Shown: positions 2,464-61,587 of the stretch, piece after piece | How positions within the stretch are numbered: the first letter of the stretch is position 1 | Layout: the number at the start of each line of letters is the position of its first letter | Assembly (NCBI GenBank): GCA_003971905.1 | Contig: RSEE01000088.1 | Span: 186,001-250,000, forward strand | Direction of reading: 5' to 3' | Length of the DNA stretch: 64,000 bases | Source of the DNA: Moniliella sp. 'wahieum' | Taxonomy: Eukaryota | Program-made: the position numbers and the translations under genes | Notes under the pieces: generated by a model | Seen by the model: the letters and a program-made list of their open reading frames with translations, nothing else | Database searches by the model: none | What the model was told of the DNA's origin: nothing

Positions 2464-5400
2464 CTATTCATCAACAAAAAAGATTTCCTGGCAGTACTCG
2501 ACAATTGTCTCGACGCTCTTGGATTGCAGGGCAACATCTTGCTGGGCGCGTGCCAGGTCGGAGGCAGGGAGGCGGCACAGCGTAGGTCCCCAGCAGATGC
2601 CCAAGTTGGCCAGGCTCATCTGGTTCGTTTCTGCATGGTCGGCCACCTTGGCCAGGTGCAAGCTCAAGGCGCGTAAGGTGGCGTAGTGGGCATCGGGCAA
2701 ACGGTTGACCAAGGAATGAAACCGAATGTACAGCGTGCGCTTGTCCCCGATCCGAGCTGCCTCGATAAACTCCGAGTACAAGTTGGCTGGGATGAGAGCG
2801 TTGGGCAAGTCGCGCAAGTACAGCTTCAACACGCTGGTTACCGTGTGCACGTCCGCTCGCCCTTCCCGTCGCAGCAGGTCCAACGCATACGCACGATCGC
2901 CCGTGTCAAAGCACGCTTTGGCCACCGCGAGGCGGGAGGAGGCGCCACTGATCCGGTACAGTCCCTCTGTGTCCAGTCCGCACTCTTCCACAACTTGGGT
3001 ACACAGCGCCACCACGATCGGAACTTCGCATTGGTCCCGGATCATGTGCTGCTCGAGATCCATCCCAAATACCGAAGGAGGCAGCACCGCCAAAGGAGGA
3101 GGCGTGGCAGATACTGTGGTGGTAAGGGGCAGTACAGTACTAGGGCCCGGACTGGGAGGGGTGGTGACGGTGCGGGTAAAGAGGCCCTTTGTGCGCTTGG
3201 TCGATCGCTCTGCCTTTCGCCCTCCCATGGGCGTCCAGGAGGTCAAGTAGGATTCTACCTGACTTGCACTGGTCAACTGCCCCAGCACCAGCGGAAGGTT
3301 CAATCGATCTGGAGGGTCAGGCGGTGCGGAAGACACCATCTCGACCTCGGCCTGGGCTACGCGTGCCAGGTCCTCAGCATAGCCTGCCAGTTGGGTCTGT
3401 GCCGCTTCCAGCGCCACCCTGGTCGCGTTGAGGAGGAGCATGACGAGCTGAGGCAAGTGGGTAGAAAAGCTCTTGCTTGATCGCTTTCTCATGAGCCGAG
3501 GCCGATTCGAGCGACTCGGTGGCAGCGCGCACTTTGAACCGCAGGTCCTCTTCCATCTTGGCCGACCGGACTGCCTTGGTAGCCCCGCCGCCAAATAGAC
3601 TCCCCAAACCAAGACTCTTGCTTTTCGCCCGGGGTCGCGTGATCGCGCCTGGGGTCGACGAGCCCGAAGCCAACGACGGCTGCGACGAACCTCCCTGGCC
3701 AAGTGCCTCTGCGCCTGGGGGTTCGCTGAGCAGCAGGCCCGAGATACGGTTGGTGGGATCGTCGGCCTCGGCCATGGTGGGGCTCGTAGGACGGCGCAAG
3801 ATGCGTTCCAGTTCGTCTTCGGCTGTCCACAGACGGGTTTGGTACTTTTCACACGCCGTCTCGGCATCGGCAAGGTGTCGCTCATGTTTCGTGTTGATCT
3901 CCTTGACTTCTTTGACCCAGCCTTGGACTTGGTTCACGCACCCGCTCAGCTGCTCCGAGCGAAGTCGGAGCGACTGCGCCAGGCGAGCGCGCTCGTTCGT
4001 GCTCGCCCGATGCACTAGCAGCGTCGCACGCCACGTCTCCAGAGGGGAAGGGGTGGATAACACGCCTTTGTTGTTGCTGCCGCCGCCGTTGCTCGAATCT
4101 GAGCTGGTCAATTTCAGCAGCCCCTTGACATGGCTTTCTTCCAGTTGGGCCCGATGGCGGAAAAACGAAGCGATTTCTTCAGCAGTGCTCGTTATGTCGG
4201 CCGCACGAGCCAGCAACAGTGCCACACCAAACTGGAGAGGAAGAATGAGAAGAGGAAGAGCAGATTGAGTTAGCCTATACAAAAGGTAGTAGATGGGTGG
4301 GTGAGGTGGGGGGCAAAAAGAGAAAGAAAACGGGTTATTACATACCTCCAGCTCGCAGAGTTGCTGGAATGTCTCGGGACGAACATCGCCTTGGAAGGGT
4401 CCTGGTTCCCCAGACGGATCGGCCGAGAGATTCTCCGCGGCGCGCGGTGGGATTTTTGCATCGAGGCTTGGCAGCCCCCCACCGTCTCGGCCGCCTGGAG
4501 AGGGGACAAGCCACTTTTCTTGGATTGGATCGAAGCCGTCTCTTCCGAACTGGAGTGGGAAAGCAGCATGTTGCCCACAATGCCAACGCTGCGATTGTTG
4601 CTCAGGCTCGTCTCGGATCGATTGTGCGCGGGGGGGGAAGGGGGCAAGGTGAACAGCGGGGGTTGCGTTGTTGCCTTGGCAGTGGAGGGAGGGGTGAACC
4701 AAGCTTCGGGATGCGCAACATGGGAACTGGTTGAGGGACGGGGGAGGTGGCCAACTGAAAATACACTGTTGACGGAGGATGTTGAGCGGGTGCGAGGGTG
4801 CACGGTAGTGGCCGCCGGGTACAGCGGGTTGCCTCGCCTTGGCGCCGAGGGCGGGGTGGGAAGAAGAGCGCTTTTCCCCTCCTCGGATGTCCTGTTGCGC
4901 GCACCAGAGATAATGACAATCGACTCGTTGGACATGTGCGGCTTGGCGGGCCAGGGCTGTTGGTTTGGGCCGCCGACTGTCGGCTTTCGCGCAGCGCCAG
5001 GTTCTGCGGAGAGGGATGCAAGGGGAAGCTGCGCATGATGGTAGGCTGGAGGCTAGGTGGGCTCTCTGCTTTGGCTTGTTTTTTGGTCAGAAGAGGTGGG
5101 ATGGGGAGAGGAGGGCTGGGATTGAGGTAGGAAGGAGGCAAGGCGGTCGAATGCGATTTGGCATGATGATGGGCCTTGGTTGGAGCGTGCGGGTGGCCAT
5201 CTGGCATGCCCATCGTGGGCGCCGACGACGGCACAGCGGGTAACCGGACCGTATCCATTTCGGACGAGTCCCAAGGGACCAGCTGGGCATGATCTTGTAT
5301 GGCCGGGGGGGAGGCAGCCAACTGGGTCAGGTTGGGGGTGGAGCTGGAGGCATTCAGCATGATGGGCTGGGGCGCGACGCAAGACGTGGTGTTGGCCAGG

Positions 5401-6079
5401 GCAGAAACGGAGATGGAGAAGGCGGTGGAGGGCGTGTAGGATTGGGACGAGTTGACGCTGCCTGAGGGGGTCGGGGCTCGCTCGGGGTGCTGCGGCGGTG
5501 GGAAGACCGGCGTGGGCGGGCGGATGGGGCGAGGCCGACTTGGGCGGCCACACGGCGGCACTGCTGCTGTCCCGCGGAGGCTGTAGGGCGCAGCGGCGGG
5601 GCTTTGCCGTCCACCAGCAAGGGGACGGGAAAGGGGATGTCGAGCGAGGTGGTGTGGGACAGGGGGAGCCCCGTCGGCTGCGTAGTAGCAGAGGCAGAAC
5701 GCTCCAGGTTGAGGGCGGCAGGGCTGTCTGAGCCATGCGGCCTGGTTGGTGGGTCCTGGTCGATGCCCAACAGGCTGAGGGGGGGGAGCTGCCAGTCGTC
5801 GATGGTGCCCGTGGAGCTGGCGCTGCGTTGCGGGTGACGGGAGACGAAAAGAGCGCCAGGCGGCCGGCGGAGGGGAGGGGCTTGCCCCAGCAGGCAGCGT
5901 GGCGACGGTGGGGGCGGCGTTTTCTGTCGGCGGCGGGGGCGGCGGAAGTGGGAGAGGAGGCCGGCGTGCTGTGCAGCGGGGCCGATGGTGGGGGTGGGGA
6001 GGGCGGTGGTGAGGGCGGGGGACGAGGTGGGGGTGCGTGGCCGCGAGGTGGCGGGGGGGTTGGCGACGTTGATGCCCAT
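2464..6079 (-). CDS. Rho GTPase-activating protein with an F-BAR-like coiled-coil region and a long Pro/Ser-rich N-terminus (Rgd1-like); intron 4232-4345; several frameshifts
   Basis: C-terminal RhoGAP domain 'VFGMDL...VPIVV..C...VEECGLDTEGLYRISG...LKLYLRDLP...NQMSLANLGICWGPTL'; FCH-like 'EEIASFFRHRAQLEESHVKGLLKL'. The start codon is inferred. Confidence 0.85.
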
Positions 6080-6779
6080 GGTGGGAGCAGCAGGCCGAGA
6101 GCGAAGGAGGGGGGGGGAAGAAGGGGTGGTGGGATGTATGGCGCACAACAACAAAGAGAACCTCTCGAGAGACTATGCATTCTGGCTCTGGGAGTGCGCC
6201 TGCTCCACACTCTGCCTCCCCGCTGCTGTGGGCGCTGGGATGCACTCAGGGGCGCCGAATTGGGCCGTCGGCGGAAGCATGCGGCATGGGGGCGTGCCTA
6301 TTCTGTACTTTAATCTGTTCGCGGCCTGCTCCACCCGAGCCGCCAGATGGGCGCTGATCGGTCATCCCGCACACCGCCCCCGTGCCCGCCCCACCGCCCG
6401 GCGCCACACCCGCAACACACCGCATGCGTACTTCTATCAAAATATCACCCCAGAAGCATGCCATATTTGCCCCCCAACACCTGCTCCGCGTCTCCCCACC
6501 ACCACCTCTTCCATCGCCACCTGCGATGGCCACACTTACTTCCTTCCCGCTGTGGGTGTGTTGGGAGGAAAACAAACAATACAACATCCGCCTAAACATG
6601 TGGTGCGAGGCGTTGGCAAGATATATAATATACTTTTACGCTCTGCGAGCCACATGCTATCACAACAAAACAATAACAAATCCTGTTCTACGTTCCCATT
6701 CTTGCAGCCGGAAGAGCGACAGAAATCTCCCATACAGCTATATATATTGTGAGGCTTGTTAGATTCATCGCACAGGTTG

Positions 6780-7051
6780 TGTTGGCCTAGGGAGCCTGAC
6801 GGACAGAACGATGAGGAGAATAAAGCGATGGATTATTGGAGCCAGAGTTGGGTCTGGGTAGTACTGAAGATGAGGCATCTATATATAGGAGGCCGGACTG
6901 GACACATGGCCAGTGAGGTACACAGGAGAGGATGCACAGGGACAACAGTGCCACACGCTGGGACGATACCCGCAGCGTGGAAGCCGACGATGGAACCGGG
7001 CGAACCTGGTCTACCGCCTGGGAGCCGGAGGATCATCGATCACAGTCCACA
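6780..7051 (-). mobile_element. Diverged solo LTR of the TRIM-like family at 11873 and 49094
   Basis: Aligns by eye along its full length to the young ~237-bp LTR (TGTTGGCCTAGGGAGCC...CACAGTC[A/C]ACA); perfect 5-bp TSD GGTTG at 6775-6779 and 7052-7056. Confidence 0.9.
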
Positions 7052-8156
7052 GGTTGCATTCCTGATCTCGATCATATAGCACGATCGATATAGGAGAAGC
7101 GCTGAGCGCTGACAGCGCTGACAGTTACTACTATATGCACAGGGCCCTGGTTCATGCCGAAACCACAGAAAGGAGAAACACAAAGTAATTTGAGCTACCG
7201 CGGGTGGGTCGTGCACGTACTTTGGCCAACGTTCCTTCAGTTCCTTCTCAGGCCTAGGACTTCCGAGGGTTTCTCGCTTCCGTTTGCCTTGTTGTGTTCC
7301 GGCACAGCCTAGCCCCTGGCCGCGACTGCCTGCTTGATGCTCCCCCGTAGGCGTTGCTGGCTGGCTTGTCTACTACCACCCCTAGTCTCACCCAGCACCC
7401 GCGACGACCGTCAGGACCCTAGATCTCATCACACAGGGCAACAGCAACTTCCTTCTCTTTGAGACATCTGAGAAGAGCAATCTCTCTTACCGTCTCTCTC
7501 TTTACTTTTTTGCCTTGATCATTATAATGGCGTTGACACCAAAGCAGACGTACAGCAAGCAGGGTTGTTTTGTTGCCAAGTGTGGGCTGCGTGTTGTGTC
7601 GTAAGACCAACACGAGGAATGCCAGCAGCGGAGGCCACTGCATAATGATGTTCCCTCATCCGATTGTAATGGTACGGTGTAGAGGCGACAAGTTGTCATC
7701 CTCTTCTTGTTTGCAGGGTGGACGTATATACTACTTTGGTATAGACGCTGAAGCGGCCGGTGTCCCATACTTGGTGTAACCTCTTTGGGGCTGGGGATTG
7801 GCAAGCACGGTGACATGGTGGGTGGGTGGCCTCGGCTGCTGGGGCCACCGCAGCGGTGCGGGGCAGACCGGCTGGTGGGGCAGTGCGCTGGCTTAGGTCA
7901 GCTGGCCAGAGCGCGCAGGCGCAGGCGCGTGGGGAACCGCATCCACGCTGGACGTGAACATTGCACGGCGGAAGCGGGCGGAATGAGCGCCGGCGGGCGG
8001 CGCGCAGGCGAGGGGCGCGTGAGGCGGCGGCTGACGCGTGACGGGCAGCGCAGCCCAGCCCAGGCTCAGCAGCGCCCAGCCACTCAGCCCGCAGCCACCG
8101 CCTGCCCCCCCACCTCCACCTCCCTCCACCAGCCACACCCCCCGGGGCATGCAGCG

Positions 8157-11063
8157 ATGAAGAGCTTGAAGAAGGCCATGGCGCTCTCGCGCACCTCCAA
8201 AAGCGACTCCAACAAGCAGCCCCACCCGTCCCACCCCCCGCAGCCCACGCCCCCCGCCGCCCCCGACGCCGCCAGCACGCCCTCCCGCACCGCCTCCCTC
8301 CGCGCCTTCAAGTCCAGCGCCAGCAGCAGCAGCACCGCCCACGCCGCCCCGTCCCCGTCCCCCCCCACCGCCACCCCGCCCCCCAACGGCGCAGCCCCCG
8401 CCCACGCCCCCGCCAAGGACCCCAAGCGCTCCAACGGCCACTCGCCCCACAGCAGCAGCGCCGCCCCCCGTCCGCCGCGGCCCCGCCTGCGCCACCCAAG
8501 CCCGATGCCAAACCATCCCGCTCCGCCCCGCGCAAGAGCAACCCCTCCGCCTCCTCTGCCTCCTCTGCCTCCTCTGCCCCTGCCCTGCCGGGCTCCACAT
8601 CCTCCACCCGCACGCCCACCCTGCCAGCGGCGCAGCCCATGCCTCTCCCTACGAACGCAGCGCCGCCCCTGCCCCGGCCGTGCTTACGCCCGGCACCGCC
8701 GCCGGGCCGGCTGCGACGCCCATTAATGCCACTGGCACCGCCGGCCAGCCCCGTTCGGTCTCGGGTCTGGGCGGCGCGGCGGGCAAGGCCTACCCCACCG
8801 TCTCTCCGGTTGGCGCTGGTGCGGGCTCTGGCGCCTCGACGCCCGCTGGTGCCAACGGTGCCGACACGAGCAGCAGCAGGCTGTACCCCGACCATTCCTC
8901 TGGGTCTGGTGTTGGGTCGCTGATTGGTGCCGGCCACGCGATCGGCGGAGCACCTGCAGCCGGCTCAGGCGCGACGGTTGGGTCGCAGACGCCCTTGTCG
9001 CAACAGACGCCGAAAGACATTGTGCCCGGAACGGCACTCAAGACGCCCCCGCGCAAGCAACGCAGCAGTCGGATGCACATCTCCTCCTCCCATTCCGGCG
9101 CACAGGGACAATGGGACCCGGCGATGCTGGGCTTGCCCCCGGGCGCCCGCCCGCCTCAGGACCTGGAGAAACTGCCTGCGTTCTTGGAGGTCGTTCCGGC
9201 CGACCGGCAGGAATTGTTCATTCGCAAGCTACGCCAGTGTTGTGTTGTATTTGACTTTGACGACCCGACGCGCGACATGCACGGCAAACAGGTCAAGGCG
9301 GCCACGCTGCACGAACTGCTCGAGTACATCACCTCCACGCGCGGCGTGATCACGGATGCCATCTACCCCGAGGTGGTCAACATGTTTGCTGCCAACTTGT
9401 TCCGCACCATCCCGCCGGCGTATGGGTTTGCTCAAGCTGCCGCCAGCCGTGCTGCGCGCGAGGACCCGATCGCAAATGACTTGACGTCCTACAACCCGAG
9501 TGCGATGGACGACGATGCGTCGGAGACGGGGTCGATCGTGTCGGGTCTGGCGCCGCTTGCGTCCGAGACGCGCGGTGGTCCGCCTTCGCCGGCTGCCTTG
9601 CTCTATGGCGGTGGCAACACGGGCGAGGGCGCGTTTGACCCTGAGGAGGACGAGCCGGTGCTGGAGCCGGCTTGGCCGCATTTGCAGGTTGTCTACGAGT
9701 TTTTCCTTCGTTTTGTCGAGTCGCCCGAATTTCAAACGTCGCTGGCCAAGCGCTACATCAACCCGCCGTTTGTACTGCAGTTGCTCGAACTGTTTGACTC
9801 GGAAGACCCGCGGGAGCGCGACTTTCTCAAGACGACGCTCCATCGGATCTACGGCAAGTTCCTCAACCTCCGTGCGTTTATCCGCCGTTCCATCAACCAC
9901 GTGTTCTTTATGTTCATCTATGAGACGGAGCGCTTCAATGGGATTGCCGAGCTGCTCGAAATTTTGGGATCGATCATCAATGGGTTTGCGTTGCCTCTCA
10001 AGGAGGAGCACAAGGTGTTTTTGGCCCGCGTGTTGGTTCCGCTGCACAAGGCGCGCAGTTTGGCGCTGTACCACCCGCAATTGGCCTACTGCGTGGTGCA
10101 GTTCCTTGAAAAAGACCCGAATTTGACGGCGTTGGTCGTGTTGGGGTTACTGCGGTACTGGCCCAAGGTCAACTCGCCCAAGGAAGTCATGTTCCTCAAC
10201 GAGACGGAAGAGATTCTGGACGTGATTGACCCGACTGAGTTTACCAAGATTGCCAGTCCGCTGTTTACCCAGCTGGCACGGTGCATTGACTCGCCGCATT
10301 TCCAAGTGGCTGAACGCGCGTTGTACTTTTGGAACAACGAGTACATTGTTTCGCTCATTTCCGACCACATTGACCAAGTCTTGCCCATTGTCTTCCCCAC
10401 GCTCTACCGCAACGCACGCCACCATTGGAACAAGACGATCCACCAACTGACGCGCAACGCGCTGCGCCTCTTTGTCGAGATCAACCCGGCCTTGGTCGAG
10501 GCCTGCACCAACGAGTACAAGTCCCATCGCCAGTACGAACGGCAACAGTGCGCCGACAAGGACGCAGCATGGAAAGTGTTACGGGAACGCGCGCTGGACG
10601 AAGCCAAGGAACTGCATGTACCGCCTCCGGCGCAACTCACTGCCGACCTGGCCAACCCGCCGAGCAACGTCGCCCGCTACTTGGAACAGCGGCGGTTGCG
10701 GCACCTCAGCCGCCACCGTGCCGCCACGGGCGCGCTGGGCCTGAGCCCGACCCCGACGCAGGACTCGACGACTTGACCGACTCGGACTCGTCCGACGACT
10801 ACTTTTTCGACGACGAGGCCGACGGTACCATGCCCGGCGGGCCTGACGGCAGCCTGTCCCTCACGCAAGGCCAAGAGTTTGGTGCTGGTGCCGGTGCTGG
10901 CGCCGGCATCGCAGGGGGCACAGACATGCACCCAGCCGGCCTGCTGCCGAGCGGGATGAACGCGATGAATCCCGACACGGGATATGCGGCTCAAGGCCAG
11001 GCGTGGCCAGGCATGCATGCCGACCATGCTGGTGGGTATCCCTACCCCGGCGCTGAAGCTTGA
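8157..11063 (+). CDS. RTS1: Protein phosphatase 2A regulatory subunit B'/B56 (Rts1/Par1-like); frameshifts in the low-complexity N- and C-terminal parts
   Basis: '[16 protein letters not shown]', '[27 protein letters not shown]', '[24 protein letters not shown]', '[18 protein letters not shown]'. Confidence 0.95.
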
Positions 11064-11872: not shown

Positions 11873-14741
11873 TGTTGGCCTAGGGAGCCGGACGGGCAAA
11901 GGATGAGGAGAAGGTGATGGATTGGAGCCAGAGTTGGGTCTGGGTACAGAGGCATCTATATAGGAGGCTGGACTAGGCACAGGGACAGTGAGTCACAAGG
12001 AGAAGTGCAGGGCACAGGGACAGTGACACGCAGGGACGTCAGCGTGGAAGCCGATGGAACCGAGGCGAACCTGGTCTACCGACTGGGAGCCAGAGGATCA
12101 CAGTCAACACCCCCGCTGGCCAGGGAACCCGGAGACATCGGTTTGGGATGAGCTCCTGCCAGTGGATGTAGAGAGGGGAGGACTTGAGTGGCAACCGGGA
12201 CGAATGGCCTGGAGTTGTGCATGGCCACACGACTGGCCTACACCCCGCTGTCCAGGATGACACCTGAACGAGCCGAGCGCTTGTGGTTGGTGTATTGTGC
12301 GACCGCCAGATGCTTGTAGAAGTCTTAGAAGTAAAAGTAGTAGGGGTTGCGCCCCGAAGCGATTTGGTGGGCAAAAGTAAAAGCACCAGTTATAGGTGTA
12401 GTGAAAGAAAATTGGAAACTTGGAGTAAATGCGGTCCAAGGTCGTTTGGCATCAAAATTGGATGCGTTTGGTAGTTGTTTGGTTCCGCATGCCTGGTGCC
12501 AGGGGGTCCATTGGGCATGGGAAAGAACGGGCGCTATGCGTCAACCGTCTTGATCTGTTTGGGTTCTCTTTGTTGTTGAAAAGAGGAGTGGAAGAAGTTG
12601 GGTGACCACCCCCCCCCCCATCCTTTCCCCAGGTGCCCCGGATGAATTGGCAATCCGGGGCGTGTAGCCGTGGGTGGGGCACTTGATGAGCAGCCACCCC
12701 CGCTTTCTGCGATTCGCCTGCGCCGTTTTGTCGTTGGAGGAATTTCGTCTCGTTGACGATACCCGACACGTTTTGTTCCGTCGTGTGTTTCCCTAAAAAT
12801 CATGCCCCATCTGTGGGGGACGAGTGTGCCGATTGTGGCGGTAGTATGCCGATTGTGGCGGTAGTATGCCGATTGTGGCGGTAAGGTGCCGATTGTGGCG
12901 GTGGTGTTTGTTGGGCGGAGGACGGTGTGTGTCTTGTGGGCTTGCGGCTTAGCTTGGGCTTGTAGGCTTGGGGGTGGGCTTGCTTGAAGAGCGCTCCCCT
13001 TCCGGGGGATCAGATTGTAGCTCTGTTGGCCTAGGGCCGGACGGGCAGAAGGATGAGGAGAAGGTGATGGATTGGAGCCAGAGTTGGGTCTGGGTACAGA
13101 GGCATCTATATAGGAGGCTGGACTAGGCACAGGGACAGTGAGTCACACAGGAGAGTGCAGGGCACAGGGACAGTGACACGCAGGACGTCAGCGTGGAAGC
13201 CGATGGAACCGAGGCGAACCTGGTCTACCGACTGGGAGCCAGAGGATCACAGTCAACACCCCCCTGGCCAGGGAACCCGGAGACATCGGTTGTGGGATGA
13301 GCTCCTGCCAGTGGATGTAGAGAGGGGGACTTGAGGGCAACCGGGACGAATGGCCTGGAGTTGTGCATGGCCACACGACTGGCCTACAGAGTTGGGTCTG
13401 GGTACAGAGGCATCTATATAGGAGGCTGGACTAGGCACAGGGACAGTGAGTCACACAGGAGAGAGTGCAGGGCACAGGGACAGTGACACGCAGGGACGTC
13501 AGCGTGGAAGCCGATGGAACCGAGGCGAACCTGGTCTAACCGACTGGGAGCCAGAGATCACAGTCAACACCCCCGCTGGCCAGGGAACCCGGAGACATCG
13601 GTTGTGGGATGAGCTCCTGCCAGTGGATGTAGAGAGGGGAGGACTTGAGTGGCAACCGGGACGAATGGCCTGGAGTTGTGCATGGCCACACGACTGGCCT
13701 ACACCCCGCTGTCCAGGATGACACCTGAACGAGCCGAGCGCTTGTGGTTGGTGTATTGCGACCGCCAGATGCTTGTAGAAGTCTTAGAAGTAAAAGGTAG
13801 GGGTTGCGCCCCGAAGCGATTTGGTGGGCAAAAGTAAAAAGCACCAGTTATAGGTGTAGTGAAAGAAAATTGGAAACTTGGAGTAAATGCGGTCCAAGGT
13901 CGTTTGGCATCAAAATTGGATGCGTTGGTAGTTGTTTGGTTCCGCATGCCTGGTGCCAGTGGGGTCCATTGGGCATGGGAAATGAACGGGCGCTATGCGT
14001 CAACCGTCTTGATCTGTTTGGGTTCTCTTTGTTGTTGAAAAAGAGGAGTGGAAGAAGTTGGGTGACCACCCCCCCCATCCTTTCCCCAGGTGCCCCGGAT
14101 GAATTGGCAATCCGGGGCGTGTAGCCGTGGGTGGGGCACTTGATGAGCAGCCACCCCCGCTTTCTGCGATTCGCCTGCGCCGTTTTGTCGTTGGAGGAAT
14201 TTCGTCTCGTTGACGATACCGACACGTTTTGTTCCGTCGTGTGTTGTCCCTAAAAATCATTGCCCCATCTGTGGGGGACGAGTGTGCCGATTGTGGCGGT
14301 AGTATGCCGATTGTGGCGGTAGTATGCCGATTGTGGCGGTAGTATGCCGATTGTGGCGGTAGGTGCCGATTGTGGCGGTGGTGTTGTTGGGCGGGAGGAC
14401 GGGTGTGTCTTGTGGGCTTGGCGGCTTAGCTTGGGCTTGTAGGCTTGGGGGTGGGCTTGCTTGAAGAGCGCTCCCCTTCCGGGGGGATCAGATTGTAGCT
14501 CTGTTGGCCTAGGGAGCCGGACGGGCAGAAGGATGAGGAGAAGGTGATGGATTGGAGCCAGAGTTGGGTCTGGGTACAGAGGCATCTATATAGGAGGCTG
14601 GACTAGGCACAGGGACAGTGAGTCACACAGGAGAGAGTGCAGGGCACAGGGACAGTGACACGCAGGGACGTCAGCGTGGAAGCCGATGGAACCGAGGCGA
14701 ACCTGGTCTACCGACTGGGAGCCAGAGGATCACAGTCAACA
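11873..14741 (-). mobile_element. Non-autonomous mini LTR retroelement (TRIM-like), tandem array: LTR 11873-12109, internal 12110-13023, LTR 13024-13258, partial duplication 13259-13569, internal 13570-14501, LTR 14502-14741
   Basis: LTRs end TGTTG...CAACA; 5-bp TSD AGGGG at 11868-11872 and 14742-14746; G-run polypurine tract next to the LTR on the minus strand; no recognisable gag/pol ORF. Confidence 0.93.
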
Positions 14742-16114: not shown

Positions 16115-18849
<2,735 letters not shown>

Positions 18850-19867: not shown

Positions 19868-20123
19868 TTCTTTTTGTTTTGTTTGGGTAGTTCGGCATGT
19901 TCCTTCTCAAGTAGGCTACGCAATGCACACGTTCACATATCGCGCTGGCTGGCTATCGGTTGCTAGTCTATCTGCCATGTGCACTTACTTTGGTCCCAAG
20001 AACACAACGATGCGATTCAAACAGTCCGACCCGACGCTCGTCGTGGGCAGCCGGGCAAGACAAGCTAGTGCGGCAGGGCGTTCATGAACCATGAACCATG
20101 AACCATGAACCATGAACCTCGTC

Positions 20124-23100: not shown

Positions 23101-24612
23101 GGTGACCACTTCCATCAACTCCACCCGTTGCCGGGCAAATTTAGTAGGCAAGTCCAAAAGCGACCCGAGATGACGACCGCCTTGGCCCGCACATAGCTGC
23201 TTACATCCAAAACCGAACCAGCACCAGGTCCCAGTACGCGTCGATTTGTTTCTTGCGTGCCTCGGGGTCGAGCATGCCATCGTCCGTCTCAGTGGAAGGC
23301 ATGTCGGTCGCATCGATGGTCGCCAGTGTCCCGCCTGAGTTCTTGGCATTGGGTCGGCCACCTGCCTCGGCAGCTACCCCGGTCGCGACGAGGTGCTTGA
23401 TGAGCAAGCCCAAAACTTCAAGCATGGAGTTGCGCATGGTATATGCCTGGGTACAGCACCGGGTCAGCGGGCCGCATGCAGCACAAACAGATGGGGGTGG
23501 ATGGGGGGAGGGGGGGGGGGACGTACCTCACTGTCAAGGTGTTTATGCAGCACCGCCATCGCCTTCTTACCGAAGCAGGGCTGAGCTCAGCCAGGCGCGA
23601 ACGAGGAAGCGGCCAAAGGATTTGGACGATTTGGCATCGGCCGAGCCAAAGGACTTGGTACCAATCTCACGCAACAGATCGTCAGCCAAGCGGGGCTGAT
23701 CAAAGTCGGTGCGGACGACATGGGTGATCTCGGCAAGAAAGTCGGGCAAATGCTCCGTGTACTGCATGGCCTGCATCATCAATGCCACCGCCGCCGACGT
23801 TTGGCTCTGGTGCTTGATGGCCAAACAGACACCTTGGTGATACCGGCTTTGATGGGGTTCTGCCGTGCGGGTCCGGCAGCCGCCTCGGCGGCGGCCAGGA
23901 CGGGTGTAGGCATCGTCTTCGATCAGAAGAAAGACGGGGCGGAGGAAACAGCCAGCGACAAACGCATCGCGGTCGATGGTGGTGGCCCAGATACGGGCGG
24001 ACTGGAGAGTGCGCATGGCACGACTGAGCAAGGAAAGGAACGTAGGGATGTGCGCAGGCCAGTTGAATTGTTCCTTGTTTCATTTGGCGGATGCCCTTTT
24101 TGCGGCCGCCAAGGCCGCGCCGGACCCGCTGGCGGCGTGCAGGCGCTCGCGCTCAGCGACGAGGACAAACCAGTGGAGCAGAAGCCCCCACTTCTCAAGT
24201 TGGGTACGATGGGCACGGTAGTCCACCGCACTCGTCTCGTCGCGCGCCGTGTCGTCGAGGGCGGCGGCAAGCCGGTGGTCAAGGCATCAGCAGCTTGGCC
24301 GCGAGCGAGGGGCAGAGGAAAGGTGTGGGTAGTGGAGCAGGAAGCTGCGCAGCGCGTCGTACACTGTCGCTTCACCGTCCGAAGTGGCAATGAGTTCGTC
24401 CAGGGAGTCGGCGCCGGCGGCGGGCGGTGGCGATGCGATCGACGACGGCGTTGAGCACCGCGGCGCGTTCGCGCGCATCGAGCTCGGGCACGGCGATCTC
24501 GCTGGGGATGACGTAGCCCGCTGCGGCGTCGGCAGAGGTGGGGAGGGCGAGGAGCTCGTCGGCAAGGTGAACGCAGAGCCCGGGCGACGCCGGACGGGTC
24601 AGACTCGGCCAT
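20124..24612 (-). CDS. YCS4: Condensin complex subunit 1 (Ycs4/Cnd1/NCAPD2); intron 23447-23526; many frameshifts
   Basis: 'LEDKSSFVRKNSIALL....THPY', 'LLASTNKTEVIESMEFF', 'VVRSNVVIGLGD', 'LTHLILNGMIKVKGQLGEMAKCIED', 'ERQWRDIAFCLSLLPY'; acidic C-terminus. Confidence 0.95.
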
Positions 24613-25828: not shown

Positions 25829-26347
25829 AAACGATGTTTGTGCCTGCCGCTCGCTTCCCCCCATTTTTCTGTCGGCATACCCTGGTCGATTTCGACGAGA
25901 CGGCATAGTAGAGTAGGCATCTGTACCCACCCTGCAAAGGAACCCTTATTCCAGCTGCCGCCTGCTGTAGCCGTTGGCCAGCCTCGCGAGTTCTTCCGAT
26001 GGTCAATGGCTATCCTTACGGCCCCAGAGCTAACAGGAACGAACGGACCGCGCGCCTGGCTGGCGCTCCTTGGTCAGTGAGGGCCGCATTCTGCATTCAT
26101 AGAGCCGAGGCCGCGCCCCCCTCTACATATCCACCCCGCCCTACCCTTCTCGCCCAGACTCGACTAGCCACACCCTGGGTGAAGCTTGCGACTTGACTGA
26201 AATTGTTTCCTGTAGCATACTCTGATATGTGCAGTGCCGTCTACGTGGGGATTCCCAGCGTGGGGGTACGGCGAGTGGGGGGGGGGGGGGCAACAGGGGA
26301 GTTGCGAGGTCACTAGTGTACAAGGGCAGTAAGGGCATGGAGGAGGC

Positions 26348-39657: not shown

Positions 39658-42109
39658 TGTGGCGGGAAAGGAGATAGGTGTGTGGGTCGATGGTGTGTAG
39701 ACTGGTATATATCCGAGAAATGCCGTATGAGGAGGAGGTTTTAGTATAGAGGGCATAATCGCCAATGGCCCAGTATCCTTCATTTTGTTCAGGGCTCTGT
39801 GACCAAGGAAACGATGATATGAAGCAAAAGCACGTCTTAGGGGTGCGATGGAGGGAGCAACTGGCTCAGGTACAGAGCCAAAAACTGAGTGAGTAACTGG
39901 CTCTCAGGCACAGCCAAAAGGGTCGCAACATGTGCTTGACGAGAAGAACAGAGCATTATGATTTTGTGCATGCGAATAAGGAAGGAAGGTGGAGAGTAGG
40001 ACACTCGACGCATGTTCAAGGCACATTAGTGTGCTCTATGAGTTGCCCTCACAACTCTGTGTGTATTGGTATACCCGCTCCATCACAGCCCATTCGGCCC
40101 TGCCAAGATATTATTGCTCGGTCTGCCAAGATATATAGGCTGGTCTGCCAAGCCTGGTTTTATTGCCTAAGCGCACGTGGCCAAAAATTATAATACGCCG
40201 GGATAGGGTTAGAAATCAAGTCGCGTCTTCGGCGATTGATGGTGTGGAGCAAAAGAGGAATGCGATAAAAACGCCAAGTACAACGGACGCAACACTCAAG
40301 AGCTGTTGATCCCGTTGGTCATGCCGATCATGTAGTAGGTCATGAAGACGCGTGAATACTGAATCGTGAATGCCATATGCCACCAAGACGTCGTCCATCA
40401 TCGATCATCGATCGATTCATTACAACACAAGATTTTCAAGAGCACCGGGGCTTTATAGTTCTCTGATGCGCGCCTGCGGCAACCAACCCCTCCTTTGATT
40501 TGTCATCCTTTCTACACCCCTATTGAATCCGCTTTCCCTTTGCCTATACCCCTTGTTGGTGGGGATCATTTACCCACCTTCCATTCTCGTCCCTTATCGC
40601 CTTTCCTGTCCAACTCCTGTGCCCGTTTCCAACCAATTGATTCAGTAAAGAGGACATCGTCTCCACTCTCATCTCCACTCTTAACTGCTTCCTCATTTCC
40701 TCACATCCTCCAGTTTTCCATCCGCCCAGTCGCCCAGTCGCCCGAGCCTTCCTTCAGCCGCGTCGATTCCCCGTAGCAGCTTATCGCGTGGGTTCCTTTC
40801 CAGCCACGTCGACAGCCGCCCCTGTCCACAGCCTCCGCTCTGGCAGTGTTTGGCCTCCTGTTGGGACACTAGTGCGGTGTGCCAAGGGCACAGCTGGATT
40901 CTGGCGCTCCCAGCCCCTTCCATCCAGCAGCTAGCTCCGCTAGTTCCGCTCGGACGGAAATGTGGCTGCCCGACATGCCTCCTTCTAGAAGCCTCGGCAG
41001 TCGTATAGCTCTTAGTCTTCCCTCTCTTCCACTCCCTCCTCCTCCTCCCTCTGCGCTATTCTCTACTATCGCTCACCAGAAGCAATCAATCCCTATCGTC
41101 TATTGACCTCCAGTTCTTGATTGCCGCCTTCCTTGGCATCGGGATCCGGTCACATCACTCCACATCCTCAACCCGTCTCTAATAAGCCCCGCAGCTTCAG
41201 AGACCTTACTACTGCCGAAGACCGAGCATACACAGTCTTGCCACACGTGCAGCCGCCTCGGCTTCCCGCCCAAAGGCCTCTCCTCGTCCCTAGCTCCGCT
41301 CGGATCCACCAGCTAGCTCAAGCACAAAACTACCGTTCTGACGGTCTCCTACGGGATTGTACCCCACAAACCTGGGTGATCCCCCTGGAGGGGAACGCCC
41401 ATGACGATCCCATCTCACCAGTCGGGGCTAAAGCGAGAGAGAAACCAGTAGAGTCGAGACTAGGTCGAGGAATGCAACATGCAATCCCTCATCTTCAGTG
41501 CATCCGTGTGTCGAGGCAGTTGATCATCATCTTCATCTTTTACAGGGAGACCGCGTGTGTGGTTTTGACATCCTCCCAGATCAACGCCCAGATCTGAGAT
41601 GCATCATCAGTGTGCCACAAGCGTCCAACTTTGGTTCAATCAATAATGCCACTTGACTCTGGGGTGGGCGCTGGGCAAAGATACAAGTGATTAACGTACC
41701 AATAAGATGTGATCTATGATTGCCGATTGTCTCTCCTGTTGGTCACACGCAATGTCACATGTGACATGTGATGTCACGCTCTTGGGGAAATTCGCTCACG
41801 CTTGACGGGTGACGCAAATAAGCGACCGGGACCAGGGTCCAAGTGGTTAATGACTAATGACGTTAATGACTCACTCATGCGTCACGCGTCATTAGCGCTT
41901 AGCCACCGGTCACCGCATCATCGATCATCGATCACTTCGTCACCGATGATCGGATCATCGACCAATGGATCACCGATTGCTAGCATCACTCTCAAATCAC
42001 AGCCAAATCACAGGATCCAAAAAAGATTAGGGGTTCAATTAATGCATTTCTGAATAGAGCAGGCGCTCGCGTTTGCGCCAGAACACCGCGGGGTAAATCC
42101 AGCGCAACT

Positions 42110-42407
42110 TCACGCGCTCGAGGACGACGACGGGAAGGGGGAGGGGCAAGGAGCGCTGCAAGAGTTAGTCGTTGCCCCCAGCCAAACGAAAAACGAGTAA
42201 GCGAAACTTGGGCACGCCATGAGGTGGAAACGTCGAAAGACTTCTGGGGCACAAGCGATGAAAGAGAGTTAGTACACGATGGACAACAGCAACAGGATGC
42301 CAAGAACGTACCAGTGTGCATGGCCTTTGGAGCTGCAAGTGCACAGAGAGGGAAGACAAGTTAGCTGAAGAACAGGGAGCGCGTGGAATGGGGACGGTAC
42401 CGGCCAT
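42110..42407 (-). CDS. Candidate micro-exon microprotein, MAAPKAMHTEVFRRFHLMAAPCPSPFPSSSSSA (33 aa); coding exons 42407-42401, 42332-42312, 42243-42216, 42155-42110
   Basis: Three GT-AG introns (42400-42333, 42311-42244, 42215-42156), each with a CTAAC branch point, join into one open frame; a further upstream intron at 42705-42605; ATG has A at -3; TATAAAAA at about 42792-42785. No homology could be checked. Confidence 0.6.
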
Positions 42408-44460
42408 GATGTTAAGGATGGTCGTCAAGGTGTTGGCCACGGATGATTTGGGAGGTTGTGGGTAACACGCGTGGCTCAGGACGTGGTAGAAGCTCTTGAT
42501 TCCCAGTTGGGGTGTCGATTTGGATCCGAGACGACGCTGGCGATGGGCTTGGAGATGCTCGCGGCGACATTGAGGATGATCTTGACCTGCGACGGTCTCC
42601 CAACCTGGCAGAAGAGCAGGCAGACAGGGTGAGGGTGTGTTAGTATACTCAGTCCTGGGCTCGAGGGGATGTGCGAGACCACAGGTGGGGGATAGGGGAA
42701 GGCACGTATCCAGAGGAAGGTTGGTTGTTTGCTGGGAAGGATGGTGGTGGGAGGGGGACGGAAGCGAACCTGGGGGGGGCGGGCTTTTTATATCCACGTT
42801 TCCTAGGGGCATTTAGGCATGTATATATTCAGGCTGCCGATCCCTGCGACGGAACGCTAGCGAAGGCCAGCAGCACGACACTGTCACATTCCTCTGGCGC
42901 TGAGGCAGTGTTACTTTCCGCCATGCTCGAGCGGAATGCCCAGGGCAATGCCCTCTCGCGTCGCGTTCTGAAAAGCTACAGAGTGCTCTCAACTATGGTA
43001 TCCGCACTCCTGCTCCAAAAGACGAAGTGGCATCCCTTTGAAGCAGCAACGCCTCCTTTGGCCCCAGTCTGGGGGCCTCAAACTCAGATTCACAACTGAT
43101 CAGCAACCACCCACAGCTTATGAAAAGAAGATGATATCAGACCCATAGCAACTCCGGTATAGAAGTACTGCTCTTTGCAGCAGCGTGTGTGTTGCGCATT
43201 CTACTTGTTGGCACTAGATTACAGGAAGAGCTATCGCCTATAGTTTTGCGCGGAATCAGTAACGTCGATGGTATTGAACAGGGAGCCTGCTAGGGTGGTG
43301 TTGCATAGCCTCGATGAGCCATACAGAGAATTGGTTTGATGGAGCCGAACATCATAAGTCTTTTTGCCCGTATGACCATAGTTGCTGTTGAAAGGAAACA
43401 CCATTATATAGTGAAAGAGATATGGGATGGTTGGTATATATTTACAAGGGATACCGTAGTATTACCAAGACTTCCTCCCTTTTCTGCTCTTCACTACGAG
43501 CCATTATGGTGTGAAGGCCTCGTATTCTTCCCAATAATTAATGGAAAGTATGAATCAAACCTCATATGGGGCAAGCGCCTGTGCTTCCCAAGATAACATT
43601 GACGCCCATGTCGACCAATGCCCCTCCGCAATATATATGTGGTTGTGTGGAAAGCCTGAGCCCCCCACCCCTCCTGCACAACAGTCTATTTGTGCATAGT
43701 GTATGAAAGCTATCCATATGTTGTGAAGCACTGTGTGCATGTACATGTTCCCAAACATGATCCACTGATTCTCGAAAAATGCAGAAGATGCAAGCTATTC
43801 AGACTTCTTCTATTGGCCATCAGCTTCCAGCTGAATCCCAAGACTGAATATTGATTGTCTCGTTTCCCCGTTGTGATGAGTCTCGGGCACTTAGTTTAAA
43901 GATGCATCTGCGTTTCACTCGCTATAGCTACTCACTCTCTGAACTTACAAAATGACATACTAGTCTCTGTATAACGTCTGTATACCATACACAGTTGGTG
44001 TTCTGGCATACGTTGATATCTCTTTTCTAGCATACACATGCGTGCGTCTCGCTAGTTTTTGTATCAAATATCTTGCTTGTCGTAACTCACTACGAACAGT
44101 TGCCTCTAACATGGCCATGGTGTATATAGGAAACGGCATAGTACAGGAGGAAGCGTACACTTTGGCCATAAGTTTTGGTGACCGACATGGTGGTGAGAAG
44201 AGTCCGAGTCCCACTCGGCGTAGGCACGCCGTCTGCATCCATGGCCATCGACTTGGGTGTAGCACATGCCGGTATCGACTTGGATGTATCTGCTCCACTT
44301 GTGCATATCTGCATGGGCACATCGCATGGACCTTGGCGCATTGCACGACTTGTGTGTTTTTGTGCGTACTGCATAGGCTTGCGCATATTGCACGGACTTG
44401 TGCGTATCGCATCGACTTAGCGTACAGAGCCGCGCCCACGATGCGCAGCAGCACCACCGG

Positions 44461-44569
44461 GCGCATCACCCAAATGCTCACCGCATCCGCCATGCAGCAC
44501 CGGGCGCATCACCCATTGCTCACCGCATTCGCCAGGCCGGCGTTGCGCATCACCCAATGCTCACCGCAT
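44461..44569 (+). repeat. Three copies of a ~25-bp direct repeat, GCGCATCACCCAW(A)TGCTCACCGCAT, with a period of about 42 bp
   Basis: Copies start at 44461, 44504 and 44545. Confidence 0.85.
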
Positions 44570-46709
44570 GCAGCTGCCCGTCGTGTGTCTCAGATGCCCA
44601 CGCGCGTACATATTTCGCAACCCCCCGCCCAGCTGAGACACCCCCTCCCAGTGGGCCACTGTCCAGCCCTATCCCGTTCAATTTGGCCGGGGTGGTTGGT
44701 GGACCCTGGATTTGGCATACTGTCCCCGTGCCCAGGCGTCACCCGTCAAGCGTGAGCGGATTTCCCCAAGAGTGTCACGCGTCAAGTGTCACACGTCACG
44801 GTGCAACAATACAGCCTGCAGGTGGCTTCGTAACGCGTAACGCGTATAAATGGGGCCGGTGTTTCGTGCGGTGTCGAAGAAAAAAGGGCTCTATAGCCCT
44901 GGTGTGGGATGGCTGCGGCATTTCGAAGACGTGTGACTAGTGACTTTCGAAGATATACGCCTTCTGAGATCTGACCTCGATCTGACCGGTCACCGGTCAC
45001 CGGTCACCGGTCACGGGTCAACTTCAAGTGGCCGGTGGCCGTTTCACAGTCCCATGCGCGGCCCATTGCATTGGTGCGTGTATCCGTCAGTCGAGCAGTA
45101 CAGCAGTACAGCAGTACAGCAGTACAGCTACAGCACAAATGATCGAAATGATCTCAACAGTACAAAAGTCGCAAGATGGTTGCTTGTCCTACAACCTGGC
45201 GGAGCCTGGCCGAGCGCGTTGAACATGTCGAACGTTGAAGTTGAAGTTGAACTTCAAAACGTTGAGCGCGCGCTGAGCGTGAGCTGTAGCAATTAGTAAC
45301 TAGTAACTACGGCTCGTGCGCGTGACGCGTAAGCGTAAGCGTAACGCGAACGTTTATATGTTTACCGTTTACACCTTAAAAACGTTTAACGTGGTCGATT
45401 TCCGTGTGGTACGCCGTCACGCGTCACACGTCACGCATCACATGTTACATGTCACCGGTGTCACCGGTCACCTATCATTAGATCACTAAATCATTATCAT
45501 TTCCCCCTCGCATCGAAGCAGGAGGCGTGCTGTGTACTGCGTAACGCACTGGATGTGTGACGTATCACATGCACATCCCATGCGTGATACATGGTACGTT
45601 GTACACAAACCCAAAACCTGATGGCTTGGAAAGCGATGTATGTAAAAAGAGAACACACGTCTGGGCCTGTCGGGGCTGTCATGCATGTCATGGCTGTCTG
45701 GGCCTGGGGAGGTCAGGTGGAGAGTATCGTATGGCCCACACCGGACATGTTCGGCGGGTTATGGATCCTGCCCGTACGGGGAAGAGAAACAGGCAGTGTG
45801 TGGCATGTGAAGCTTGAAGTGTGAAGCAACTGTGCAGAGCCCGACGAGTGACTGATAGGACCGCGGCCTAGCGAGCGTTAAGCTTGAAGCTATGTCAGTG
45901 AGAGCGCGCATGATGCTTTTGAAGCTTGAAAAGCTTGAAGCTCGAAGCCTTGGAATCTTAGGCCTTAGGCATTAGGTCTTAGGTCACTAGTCACTAGTCA
46001 CTACCCAATACCCAATACCCAATACTCAGTACTCAATTGTACTCACTTGCTTCTTGAAGCTAGCTTGAATCAGAACTCGAAGCTTGAAACCTGAGCCTGG
46101 GCGTGAAGAACTTGAAGGTTGAACGTTGAACGTTGAACGCGCTGAACGGTTGGGGTCTGAACGTCTGAGATTCTGAGACGTTGAGGTCTGAACGTCTGAG
46201 AGTCAGATCGTTGAACGCCCTCAGCTCCTGAGGCCTGAGGTCCATGAGGCGCGACGGCCGGCGCTGAATGGGATACACAATGTGGATTACATGTGTCACA
46301 TGTCCCCGGTTACATGTTACACACAGGTTACAATGCGCTGTACAGGTTACAAAATGCGCTGTGAATCGTATAGAATTAAATATCGCCTCCCTTGCGTAAC
46401 GCGTAACAGGTCAGACAGGGCCAGGACAGAGGGAGGGGAGAGGGGGGGATGGAGAGAGAGCCTTGGAACAGAAAACGATTAGAGTACGAGACAATATTGC
46501 CAGGGTGAGAGGCCTCAGACGCGGGCAGTTTGTACGACCACAACTTGATGCGGTAAAACAAATGTGCCCTAACCCCGCCCCCACCCAAGCCCCCTCCGTT
46601 GTGCGTTGCCCAACTTAGCCCATCGAACCCCGCTAGTCCAGTACAGGAACACATTGCACCCCGGCTGGGAACGAGGCACCAAACCGGAGAATGAATGACC
46701 TCCTCCGAA

Positions 46710-48354: not shown

Positions 48355-49093
48355 GGGGGCGAAGGAGGAGTTGGAGGGAACGAAGCAACGCGGAGGCACG
48401 GAGAGCGGGCAGAGGGACGCGTGTGGCTGCTCCGGCCGGATACGCGGCCACAGCAGCGCCCAGCAGGCCCAGCTCAGGCTCATCTGAGCGCTGAGTACGG
48501 CAGGCGCACCCGAGCACGGCCCACAGACGGCCATCAATCACCGGTCGCCGATCATCGGTCATCGATCACCGGCCAACTGGGACTGCCGGGGAAGATGGGC
48601 CTGGGGAGCTGTGCGTGAGGGTGATGTATGACGCGATGACGTGTGATGGGTGACATGTGATGCATGATGAAGGAGTAGTCGCTGATTGGGACTTGTCGGT
48701 ACCGAGTCAGTAACTCAGGACTCGGTCCCGTACGTACACTGCAGTACACGGCCTAGGTAGGTAGGTACTCGGTGACGAGAATGACTTGCAGCTTCAAGCT
48801 TCAAGCTTCAATACACACAGGGTACGGGGTCCGAAACGGCCAGGGACGGCGCGATGTATGAGACACTGCAATGATTAATGACTTGAAGCTTGAAGTTGCG
48901 CTTGAGTAGCTAGGGACAAACACGCGTCACCGTGTCAGGCATGTCACATGCCACATTGACTGGGATGATCGAGATGATCGATTATCGAGTAAGTCGATTC
49001 AGCTTTAAGCTTTAAGGCCTAAGATCTAAGATCGATTAAATATTAGGATGTTGAGATCTGAGATTCGTTGTTAGACGAGGTCGATGAGGCCGA

Positions 49094-58971: not shown

Positions 58972-61587
58972 GTCACCTCCACAAGTTGATCGCCAAGAAT
59001 AGAACGCTAAGCCCGTGTGATCGGCGTACACTTTTGGGGGTAGATGGTGTTCGCGAAGACGTGAACTGCGTCGATATCTCGGAGTGTTGAGACAATACCT
59101 GTGCTTGCCCTCCCCAAGCGCCGCCAGCAACGTCTTGTCGAGAGACTGCACTGTTCGCCAAAGAAGCCGCAGAGCTGTGGAGGGATTCGTCAGAGGAAGG
59201 GGGGTTTGGTGGCAGGGAAGAAACAGAACGTTGAACGTTGACTCCCCACAGCCACATGTGTCCCTATAGTCTTATGAGAGATTTGCGCGATTTGAGCTGA
59301 GTACGTTCGCTCCTCTGAATAATCTAGAGGAGCGGGCGTGCCTGGTCAACCTTGTGACCTAGGTCCACTGAGCTCTTTCGATATAGATCTCCCGAAAAAG
59401 GACCCCCCCACGACAGACACCGCCGTTATTACTTTCTTCGTGATGGATGAGCTTCATCCATAACCGGTAATCCCGAATGCTCTTTACAACCCCACCCACC
59501 CAAACAGCAGGATCGAGCTTATCATCATTAAGATAAAACGGGGCGTGCGAGGTTATACATGCACATTTCCTTCATATTTGTAGCGTATTGCTGAAGAGCG
59601 TTGGTTGAGATGTGAGAGTACTGAGTGTGGATACACGTGGTGTATGAGCTTGTTGAAGTGTGGCGGGCAAAGAAGATGCATACATATGATTCTCTTCCGC
59701 TCTCTCCTCTCTGTATGTTTCTATAACCCCTTCTCTTCCATGGCGCTCGATCGCATTAAAACGTACCGTTACACATGCAATGATTCGCACGTAATACCAA
59801 AGTAGAGGAGCGCTGGCGTGAAATTGGACTCAAATGTTCGGCCAGGCACACCCGACCACACCCTCACAGATATGGCGGACCATTGGGGCTTATAGTGGTG
59901 AACAGGAAGGGACATGAAAAACGTGGGATTATCGATTATCGATCATACTGAGCCACACGTCTGACCCCACATTCCAGTATGCGCTCCCCACTCTGTCGTT
60001 TCATAGTATCATTGCGTTCCTTAATGTCCGCCAACTAACTCCTGAGTCATGTGTGCATGAAATCGTTCACAAGAACTTAGTACTGACTGTGTGCAGACAG
60101 ACCGTGGAAACACCTCGCTCCCACTGCCAAGCTCGCTCACATAAGCACAAGGTATGTGCATGTTCCTGTAGGGGGAGAGAGAAGAGAGAATCACACGTAC
60201 GGGGAGACTCCAACCAGTCCTTCGTTTTTTTATCTCTCTTTCATATAATTATAGCTGTTTCTATATTCATGTAAGAGCTTTGGCCTGACTAAGGACTCTG
60301 TTAGTTGTGGTGATGCTTTGGTATAGTATCAGATGCACTGCTTCTGTTCCACTTCAAGCTTCACCAAAAGACGGAGCCGAGAGACATTCCCTCATCCGCG
60401 GTGTAACTAGTATAACTAGGCGAAATAGACGGGGATGATTGAATTAAACCACACACTAAATTGCGTTGAATATATATTAGGCGATGTGAATCTTTTCGTC
60501 GATCATCGATCACACCTTCTCATCTCGTCAGAAAGCCGTGCTTACCACAACCCATGCAATGGGTCCCGGTCCAGCATTCGCCGCACCACCCTTCGTTTTC
60601 AGGCTCGCGCGTCGCCAACCCCGACGTAGTACTATAACCTGCAAGTTGGGTACCACGTCGCCACACAGGAGTACCTTATTTTCTTCCATCCTTCTGGTTT
60701 GTTTTAAGGTGAATGCACATTTCACACCGCTATCATCATGATGTTACGGTATACTTAGGAGGGGTTGCGGCAGCTGTGGGTTTCAGTGTCCTCCTGGACT
60801 CACGCACGGACGCGGTATTCTCCTCTCAAATGTTGTTCGGGCGATAACACACTTTTGGTGGTGGGGAAAGCGGCGACTGCTCCCCGCGTGAGTATACTCT
60901 GCCCCAAATCCACTATATATAGCGCGCACTCATATAGTAGTGACTAGTGACGCCCTCTGAGAGAACACATCCCAGAGAGCAGAGTCGGAATTGGTGGTCG
61001 ATGAAGACTATAACGGCTTGCTCAAAGGTAGTGGCGTTCGAGCCCAATACGCCTCTCCCTTCTCAAACCGCGATCGGAAATGCCATATAGGTGATCTTTT
61101 TGGCCATAACTATAATACTGTGACCAAATTCTTGCAGTATCCCGAACACAGCCGCATACTTGAGGATGCGTAGGTGAATAAGGGACGAGCAAAACAGCGG
61201 CTGAGAACAAAGAGTGACTGCTCGATACTATAAGTATAGACTTCGGAGATGGAATAACCATACAGTGGGAGTTAGTATTTGGACACCTTCAGTCGCCCCT
61301 CAAGCTGGAAAGGAGGACGTATCGTCGACTCTTTTTGGGTGTGGGCAGCATTTGACGCGGCTTTGAAACGCTGCCACATATATGCCAGTTTTTGGTGGCG
61401 ATGAAGACAGCAGCAGTATATTGTACTGGAAGAGCGATGAGAAATCAATATACCAACACTATACGGGGTACTGATATGGCATGCTATCTATCGTTTGTGC
61501 CTGTCCGATTCCGCAGAGTCCCTCTCCGTGGTCAGGTGTTGCGAAGACATCTTTCTCGTCTCCACACCCTTCTCGCGAGCAGCTACC

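Follow-up and report, generated by a model that had tools for sequence, protein, structure and literature searches.

The closest described systems are those in which a cut-and-paste enzyme seals the DNA flanking its element as hairpins. Such flank hairpins are formed by hAT, Transib, RAG and Mutator-like (MULE) enzymes and are opened by host enzymes such as Artemis, as set out in the passages of PMC5499845 that deal with them. For Ac/Ds in yeasts, the footprint sections of PMC5873905 describe P-nucleotide palindromes, the involvement of Pso2, which is named there as the fungal relative of the Artemis-type nuclease, and joining by ligase IV that is possible without microhomology. The same sections give 28 different footprints in 128 clones for Ac/Ds in Candida and place the centre of the palindromes on the complement of the base beside the element, which amounts to an odd core. 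Basidiomycete elements with 7-bp target duplications also exist. Among those in the relevant parts of PMC12730594 are hAT7 of rust fungi, whose consensus starts with CAACGGTGGG, CAACACTGGG or CAGCGATGGG in the first 14 of its 71 mentions in Table S1, and Kyakuja (KDZ group) of Agaricomycetes, which makes 7-bp target duplications and lacks terminal inverted repeats, its ends being 5'-CA..TG-3'; the ends of the CACTA-Transib group are given there as CA..TG as well.

Against this background, we consider seven extra bases in an old solo LTR within a window of 64 kb, by which we mean the whole stretch of DNA that was analysed. These bases are, in our reading, probably the donor-site excision scar of an unclassified cut-and-paste DNA transposon with a 7-bp target. 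The host LTR is unremarkable and like ordinary solo LTRs, and serves merely as a dated substrate that recorded the scar. The LTR, its surroundings and its relatives in the window are these:

6780..7051, + strand: old solo LTR, 272 bp, with TG..CA ends and homology to seven young LTR copies
6775..6779 (left) and 7052..7056 (right), no strand: 5-bp target duplication GGTTG of the solo LTR, perfect, read directly
7031..7037, + strand: left 7-mer of the scar, GATCATC, which is GATCACA with its last two bases exchanged for TC; 7031 is listed among the left-handed forms
7038..7044, + strand: right 7-mer of the scar, GATCACA, intact and the same as the single copy in young LTRs (for example 12096-12102)
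2467-6245, - strand: RhoGAP/F-BAR gene, one neighbour of the solo LTR
8170-10773, + strand: PP2A-B56 gene, the other neighbour, oriented divergently from the RhoGAP/F-BAR gene
7101..7123, + strand: two stacked scars about 50 bp beyond the LTR end, GCTGA-GC-GCTGACA (+7, left-handed) and GCTGACA-GC-GCTGACA (+9, both 7-mers intact around two mirrored bases)
60501..60514, + strand: 14-mer GATCATCGATCACA, identical to the LTR scar, in unrelated non-LTR DNA, where the same target 7-mer was scarred independently
Starts at 11873, 13024, 13387 (partial) and 14502 on the + strand and at 49094, 50247 and 51401 on the - strand: the seven young LTR copies, found by alignment with the old LTR

The assignment of the host as a solo LTR rests on its TG..CA ends, its 5-bp duplication and its homology to LTRs that flank internal regions. 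Positions 7030-7045 read GGATCATCGATCACAG, against GGATCACAG at 12095-12103 of a young copy, and the old LTR thus carries GATCA-TC-GATCACA at 7031-7044 where the young LTRs have GATCACA; past the insert the alignment picks up again (CAGTCCACA aligned with CAGTCAACA) and runs on to the ..CA end of both LTRs. When the old LTR is aligned with every other copy in the window, the seven bases are absent from 7/7 younger copies, the partial copy at 13387 additionally lacking one G shortly upstream of the insert position, and the exact 7-bp difference that the earlier note had claimed is therefore borne out. The same holds for its second claim, that the filler is set by the flanking dinucleotide, as the inserted bases are exactly those predicted from the flank GA-TCA. 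The TC of the left 7-mer reverse-complements the GA with which the right GATCACA opens, as P nucleotides would, and copies of the target are retained as in a footprint, with 5 of the 7 bases of GATCACA at 7031-7037 and all 7 at 7038-7044.

By our own arithmetic, seven random bases would fit this rule about once in 4^7 cases, and an imperfect tandem copy sharing five of seven bases would fit it about once in 16. The second figure bears on slippage, by which an imperfect 7-bp tandem duplication (AGGATCA to AGGATCA-AGGATCA) would have been followed by two substitutions that mimic the rule by chance. Five of the seven inserted bases do match those that precede them, and the LTR is old enough to have gathered two substitutions, but both deviating bases are the predicted reverse complement (the chance of about 1 in 16), and the inserted unit does not equal the adjacent one. 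The identical 14-mer at 60501-60514, in unrelated DNA, also speaks against slippage, as does the rarity of perfect TNA-centred heptamer duplications that are not palindromic (2 loci). Taken together, slippage is very improbable.

The direction of the change depends on how the LTR copies are related. The young copies are mutually 95-99% identical and form two arrays of the type LTR-internal-LTR-internal-LTR (11873-14741, + strand, and 49094-51629, - strand), built from a short non-coding LTR element with an LTR of about 237 bp and an internal part of about 0.9 kb. The partial LTR at 13387 lies within the first array, which as a whole is bounded by the 5-bp duplication AGGGG, and both arrays look like the products of unequal recombination at single insertions. 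Among the young copies, the indels are 3-bp changes and a single tandem copy of 19 bp, and none is 7 bp long. The old LTR shares 77-79% identity with them and differs by about seven further indels of 3-11 bases, none of which obeys the rule. Both blastn (word size 7) and an nhmmer profile recover the same eight copies in the window, with no third LTR lineage to serve as an outgroup, and a metagenome scan with an LTR pattern spanning the scar site gave 0 matches; the young copies are a single lineage, and old against young is a comparison of two.

With two lineages to compare, it is possible, if rather doubtful, that the longer form is no novelty of this locus: the scar could have been carried in by a progenitor retrotransposon of an old LTR subfamily, or the longer form could be ancestral and the young lineage could have lost exactly 7 bp between the GATCA repeats. 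Precise deletion is favoured by five-base direct repeats, and the seven young copies, being 95-99% alike, count as one lineage; the old and young LTRs, 21-23% apart and separated by some seven other indels, may moreover belong to separate subfamilies. Against an older origin stands the roughly 60-fold excess of such units, which means that they must arise somewhere by insertion. The distribution of scars points the same way, since they are dense in old non-coding DNA, two are stacked 50 bp past the LTR, and the 5.4 kb of young LTR-internal arrays contain none (0 loci) even as scars abut these arrays at 14922, 49005-49052 and 51756; the unit in the LTR, furthermore, is still perfect in a sequence that has diverged by about 20%. 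An older origin would concern timing only and is compatible with a footprint mechanism. The +7 unit is likely an insertion, and we lean towards an origin in place, after the LTR had integrated.

When the LTR unit is placed into the context of the whole window, it proves to be one of many. TNA followed by a 4-base palindrome and the same TNA occurs at 78 sites, against 1.3 expected from 40 second-order Markov simulations. The two predicted bases are found on the left at 45 of these sites, on the right at 46, on both sides at 23 and on neither at 10, and the rule is thus obeyed on at least one side at 68 of the 78, a density of about 68 scar loci per 64 kb. In a broader search, five bases followed by two inverted ones and the same five were counted 143 times on the two strands, where 100 simulations gave a mean of 9.8 and a maximum of 25; in 91 of the 143 the five bases end in T-N-A, which gives the pattern xyTNA-rc(xy)-xyTNA, compared with 0.26 expected on two strands. 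The earlier proposal that the xy-TNA rule yields every such motif is accordingly general in the window (68 of 78 sites, 91 units against 0.26) and fails at the 10 sites where neither flank fits. As the +7 of the LTR belongs to this over-represented class, it is not an accident. Decayed scars are plentiful: sites with one violation number 111, where 7 are expected, and those with two number 227, where 93 are expected. Scars are chained in two or three units nine times in the window. The abundance of decayed forms, together with the scar-free young arrays, implies that scars accumulate and decay with time, which fits a scar in the old LTR and none in the young ones.

The geometry of the junctions gives additional insight. 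We enumerated the forms expected if both flanks go through hairpins, a scan that is blind to deletions and irregular joins. Where S is the 7-mer, the commonest junctions are S followed by the reverse complement of its last two bases and by S minus its first two, at 46 sites, and the mirror form, at 45, each against 0.13-0.17 expected, such that left- and right-handed forms are balanced (45 against 46); the minor junction classes remain in single figures against these 91 perfect units. The palindrome axis falls exactly at the end of the 7-mer, which gives an even, 4-nt core, and odd-core forms are scarce (2 + 2 sites against 0.43 + 0.43 expected, compared with 78 against 1.3 for the even core). 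Both 7-mers are intact around two mirrored bases (S-2-S, +9) at five distinct loci, 45138, 45450, 45677, 48964 and 7108, where about 0.03 are expected. The duplicated unit is therefore 7 bp and not 5, and the '5+2' look arises because two bases of one copy have been replaced. The perfect 7-bp duplications of a TNA-centred 7-mer that is not palindrome-like, at two loci only, also find a place here, as clean retained duplications are expected to be rare if the ends pass through hairpins.

In these properties the scars resemble flank-hairpin footprints and V(D)J coding joints, sharing with them retained target copies, short palindromes templated by the flank, trimming of the other end and minor variants. 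They are unlike the Ac/Ds footprints of PMC5873905, as far as its footprint sections describe them, in that the core here is an even 4 nt with its axis at the duplication boundary, odd cores amounting to 4 sites against 0.85 expected. In comparison with the Ac/Ds experiments, one product class is also far more dominant here, and the duplication is 7 bp with a central T-N-A.

A candidate for the kind of element that could have left such scars resides in the same window:

41779..44772, no strand: element with inverted repeats at its termini, 2,994 bp, non-coding, start CTCTTGGGGAAAT, CT..AG ends and subterminal TCACCG-type repeats
41779-41815 and 44736-44772: its terminal inverted repeats, 37 bp with 1 mismatch
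41772..41778 (left) and 44773-44779 (right), no strand: its 7-bp target duplication, TGTCACG

It was found by a window-wide search for inverted ends flanked by 7-bp direct repeats, which gave this one convincing element only, and no convincing counterpart with a duplication of 5, 6, 8 or 9 bp was found in the window. A metagenome scan for its end pattern returned 0 matches. Two other readings of its boundaries were rejected. With a 3-bp (TCA) duplication, four more bases would match by a coincidence of 1 in 256, and a mismatch would enter the inverted repeat; with an 8-bp duplication (TGTCACGC), the inverted ends are no longer equal, and there is no fit to the 7-bp period or to the hAT target pattern. 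Pfam searches of 26 of the 27 element frames of at least 60 aa gave no match at E<=0.1, the sole hit listed at E<=1 being DUF7479 (E 0.6), and the element is therefore taken to be non-autonomous.

The element shares both its duplication length and its target with the scars. A target matrix built from the pre-insertion 7-mers deduced at 60 scar loci has the consensus nGT(C/G)ACn, and under this matrix TGTCACG ranks within the top 0.034% of all 7-mers in the window and, among the 2,294 NNTNANN 7-mers, within the top 1%. The LTR site, GATCACA, is an ordinary target, within the top 26%. This correspondence is provided by one element, whose insertion site lies inside a run of scar-like motifs and directly adjoins a one-mismatch scar.

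The DNA flanking the element, at 41753-41778 and 44780-44800, consists of TGTCAC/GTGACA units, with a complete 7-mer and then its reverse complement at 41753, which suggests repeated visits to the same spot. Directly to the right of the element, at 44700-46450, scars cluster more densely than anywhere else in the window, with about 20 loci in 1.7 kb. Local hopping is not needed to explain this cluster, as scars per non-coding kb differ about two-fold between the window halves, by a rough estimate from the gene map.

The affiliation of the element is less straightforward, as its ends, CTCTTGGGG, match no family that was checked. Its inverted ends and 7-bp duplication are like those of hAT7, and the hAT superfamily forms flank hairpins; the start CTCTTGGGG nevertheless departs from the family-typical CA(A/G)C..TGGG ends in the first 14 of the 71 hAT7 mentions in Table S1 of PMC12730594, and the odd-palindrome footprint signature of hAT is not seen here. 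With Kyakuja, as characterized in the parts of PMC12730594 cited above, the element shares the 7-bp duplication but differs in its 37-bp inverted repeats and CT..AG ends, and its start likewise sets it apart from the CA..TG ends given there for the CACTA-Transib group.

It can be hypothesized from these observations how the LTR scar came about. An element of the kind resident at 41779-44772 would have landed in the LTR at GATCACA and duplicated the 7 bp. At excision, by analogy with the RAG, Transib, hAT and MULE enzymes, each flank would have been sealed as a hairpin exactly at the element boundary. A host nuclease would then open both hairpins by a nick 2 nt from the tip, so that each flank carries a self-complementary 3' overhang of 4 nt; Artemis habitually opens hairpins about 2 nt from the tip. 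In the final step, each overhang strand would be joined by ligation to the opposite flank at its recessed 5' end, and bases would be neither gained nor lost. With S = xyTNAzw, the top strand would then read xyTNAzw-w'z'-TNAzw and the bottom strand, in top-strand sense, xyTNA-y'x'-xyTNAzw, both products being exactly +7 and differing in the 4-base core alone, and replication or mismatch repair would fix one of them. In the LTR, the second form, GATCA-TC-GATCACA, would have been fixed. Re-insertion into an existing scar would lengthen the scar in a 7-bp register. This sequence of hairpin, nick and ligation would explain why the insertions have a fixed length and a variable core, why they depend on local sequence and why the two mirror forms are balanced at 45:46.

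A footprint is preferred over a free '5+2' insertion because the resident element has a matching 7-bp duplication and because 7+2+7 scars occur. The idea in the earlier note of a self-contained insertion, five bases copied and two flipped, consequently stands as a description, and as a mechanism it is probably the visible half of a two-step event. Several observations speak against the footprint reading. No transposase was found by Pfam in the window frames scanned, which comprised 141 frames with a length of 150 aa or more (E<=1e-5) and another 39 frames between 40 and 62 kb (E<=0.01), and the link to an element is made through a single resident copy with ends unlike the families checked. The scars are, in addition, far more uniform than experimental Ac/Ds footprints, +7 making up most of the recognisable forms, and about 68 loci in 64 kb demand very many cycles of insertion and excision. 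Nor was an occupied site seen together with a scar allele to match it.

The lack of a transposase in the window and the extreme uniformity of the product (91 perfect units, each minor class numbering fewer than ten) would suit a templated insertion made in one step and independently of any transposon. Following a break or replication error at TNA, the nascent strand would fold back, with TNA as the loop and xy/y'x' as the stem, copy two bases backwards and re-copy five. Such a process would require a cut placed off-centre at a TNA signal that is itself symmetric, the five S-2-S loci do not follow from it, and it leaves the 7-bp duplication of the element and its fit to the target (top 0.034%) as coincidence; we regard it as unlikely. 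About as unlikely is that the units are no transposon scars at all and stem from a mutational process of this fungal lineage that is site-specific and so far undescribed. It would write seven templated bases at T-N-A and build much of the intergenic DNA, heptamer arrays included, from local sequence, and the 7-bp duplication of the element would be either coincidental or a side product of the enzyme responsible.

Should the excision-footprint reading be true, this genome would hold an unusually dense and legible natural record of excision, with about 68 loci per 64 kb, nearly all of one conservative form, and a dated substrate such as the solo LTR would show scars building up with the age of the DNA. 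The scars would imply an unclassified element family with a 7-bp NNT(C/G)ANN target, as well as a near-deterministic hairpin repair with its axis at the element boundary and its opening 2 nt from the tip. It is also conceivable, on the same reading, that repeated landings at old scars grow arrays of palindromic heptamers in promoters, and excision could thereby be a source of regulatory-looking sequence. In a limited search of the literature, we found no description of such scars in smut-related fungi.

Other repeats in the window were observed in passing. At 20083-20117, just upstream of a condensin Cnd1-like gene, there are five tandem copies of CATGAAC, which are TGA-centred and have a unit that is not palindrome-like and misfits the scar rule. 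A 6-bp-period repeat of about 180 bp, at 16290-16471, overlaps open frames beside an MFS transporter-like frame, and long runs of G and of C, some reaching about 30 bases or more, lie in a gene-dense region at 23493-23520, 26258-26309 and 29417-29486. Finally, the segment 61588-62041 contains a chromodomain frame at 61605-61928 (Pfam Chromo, E 1e-8) between 100-bp direct repeats (61588-61687 and 61942-62041) that are 95% identical, and this frame may be a remnant of a chromodomain-carrying retroelement.
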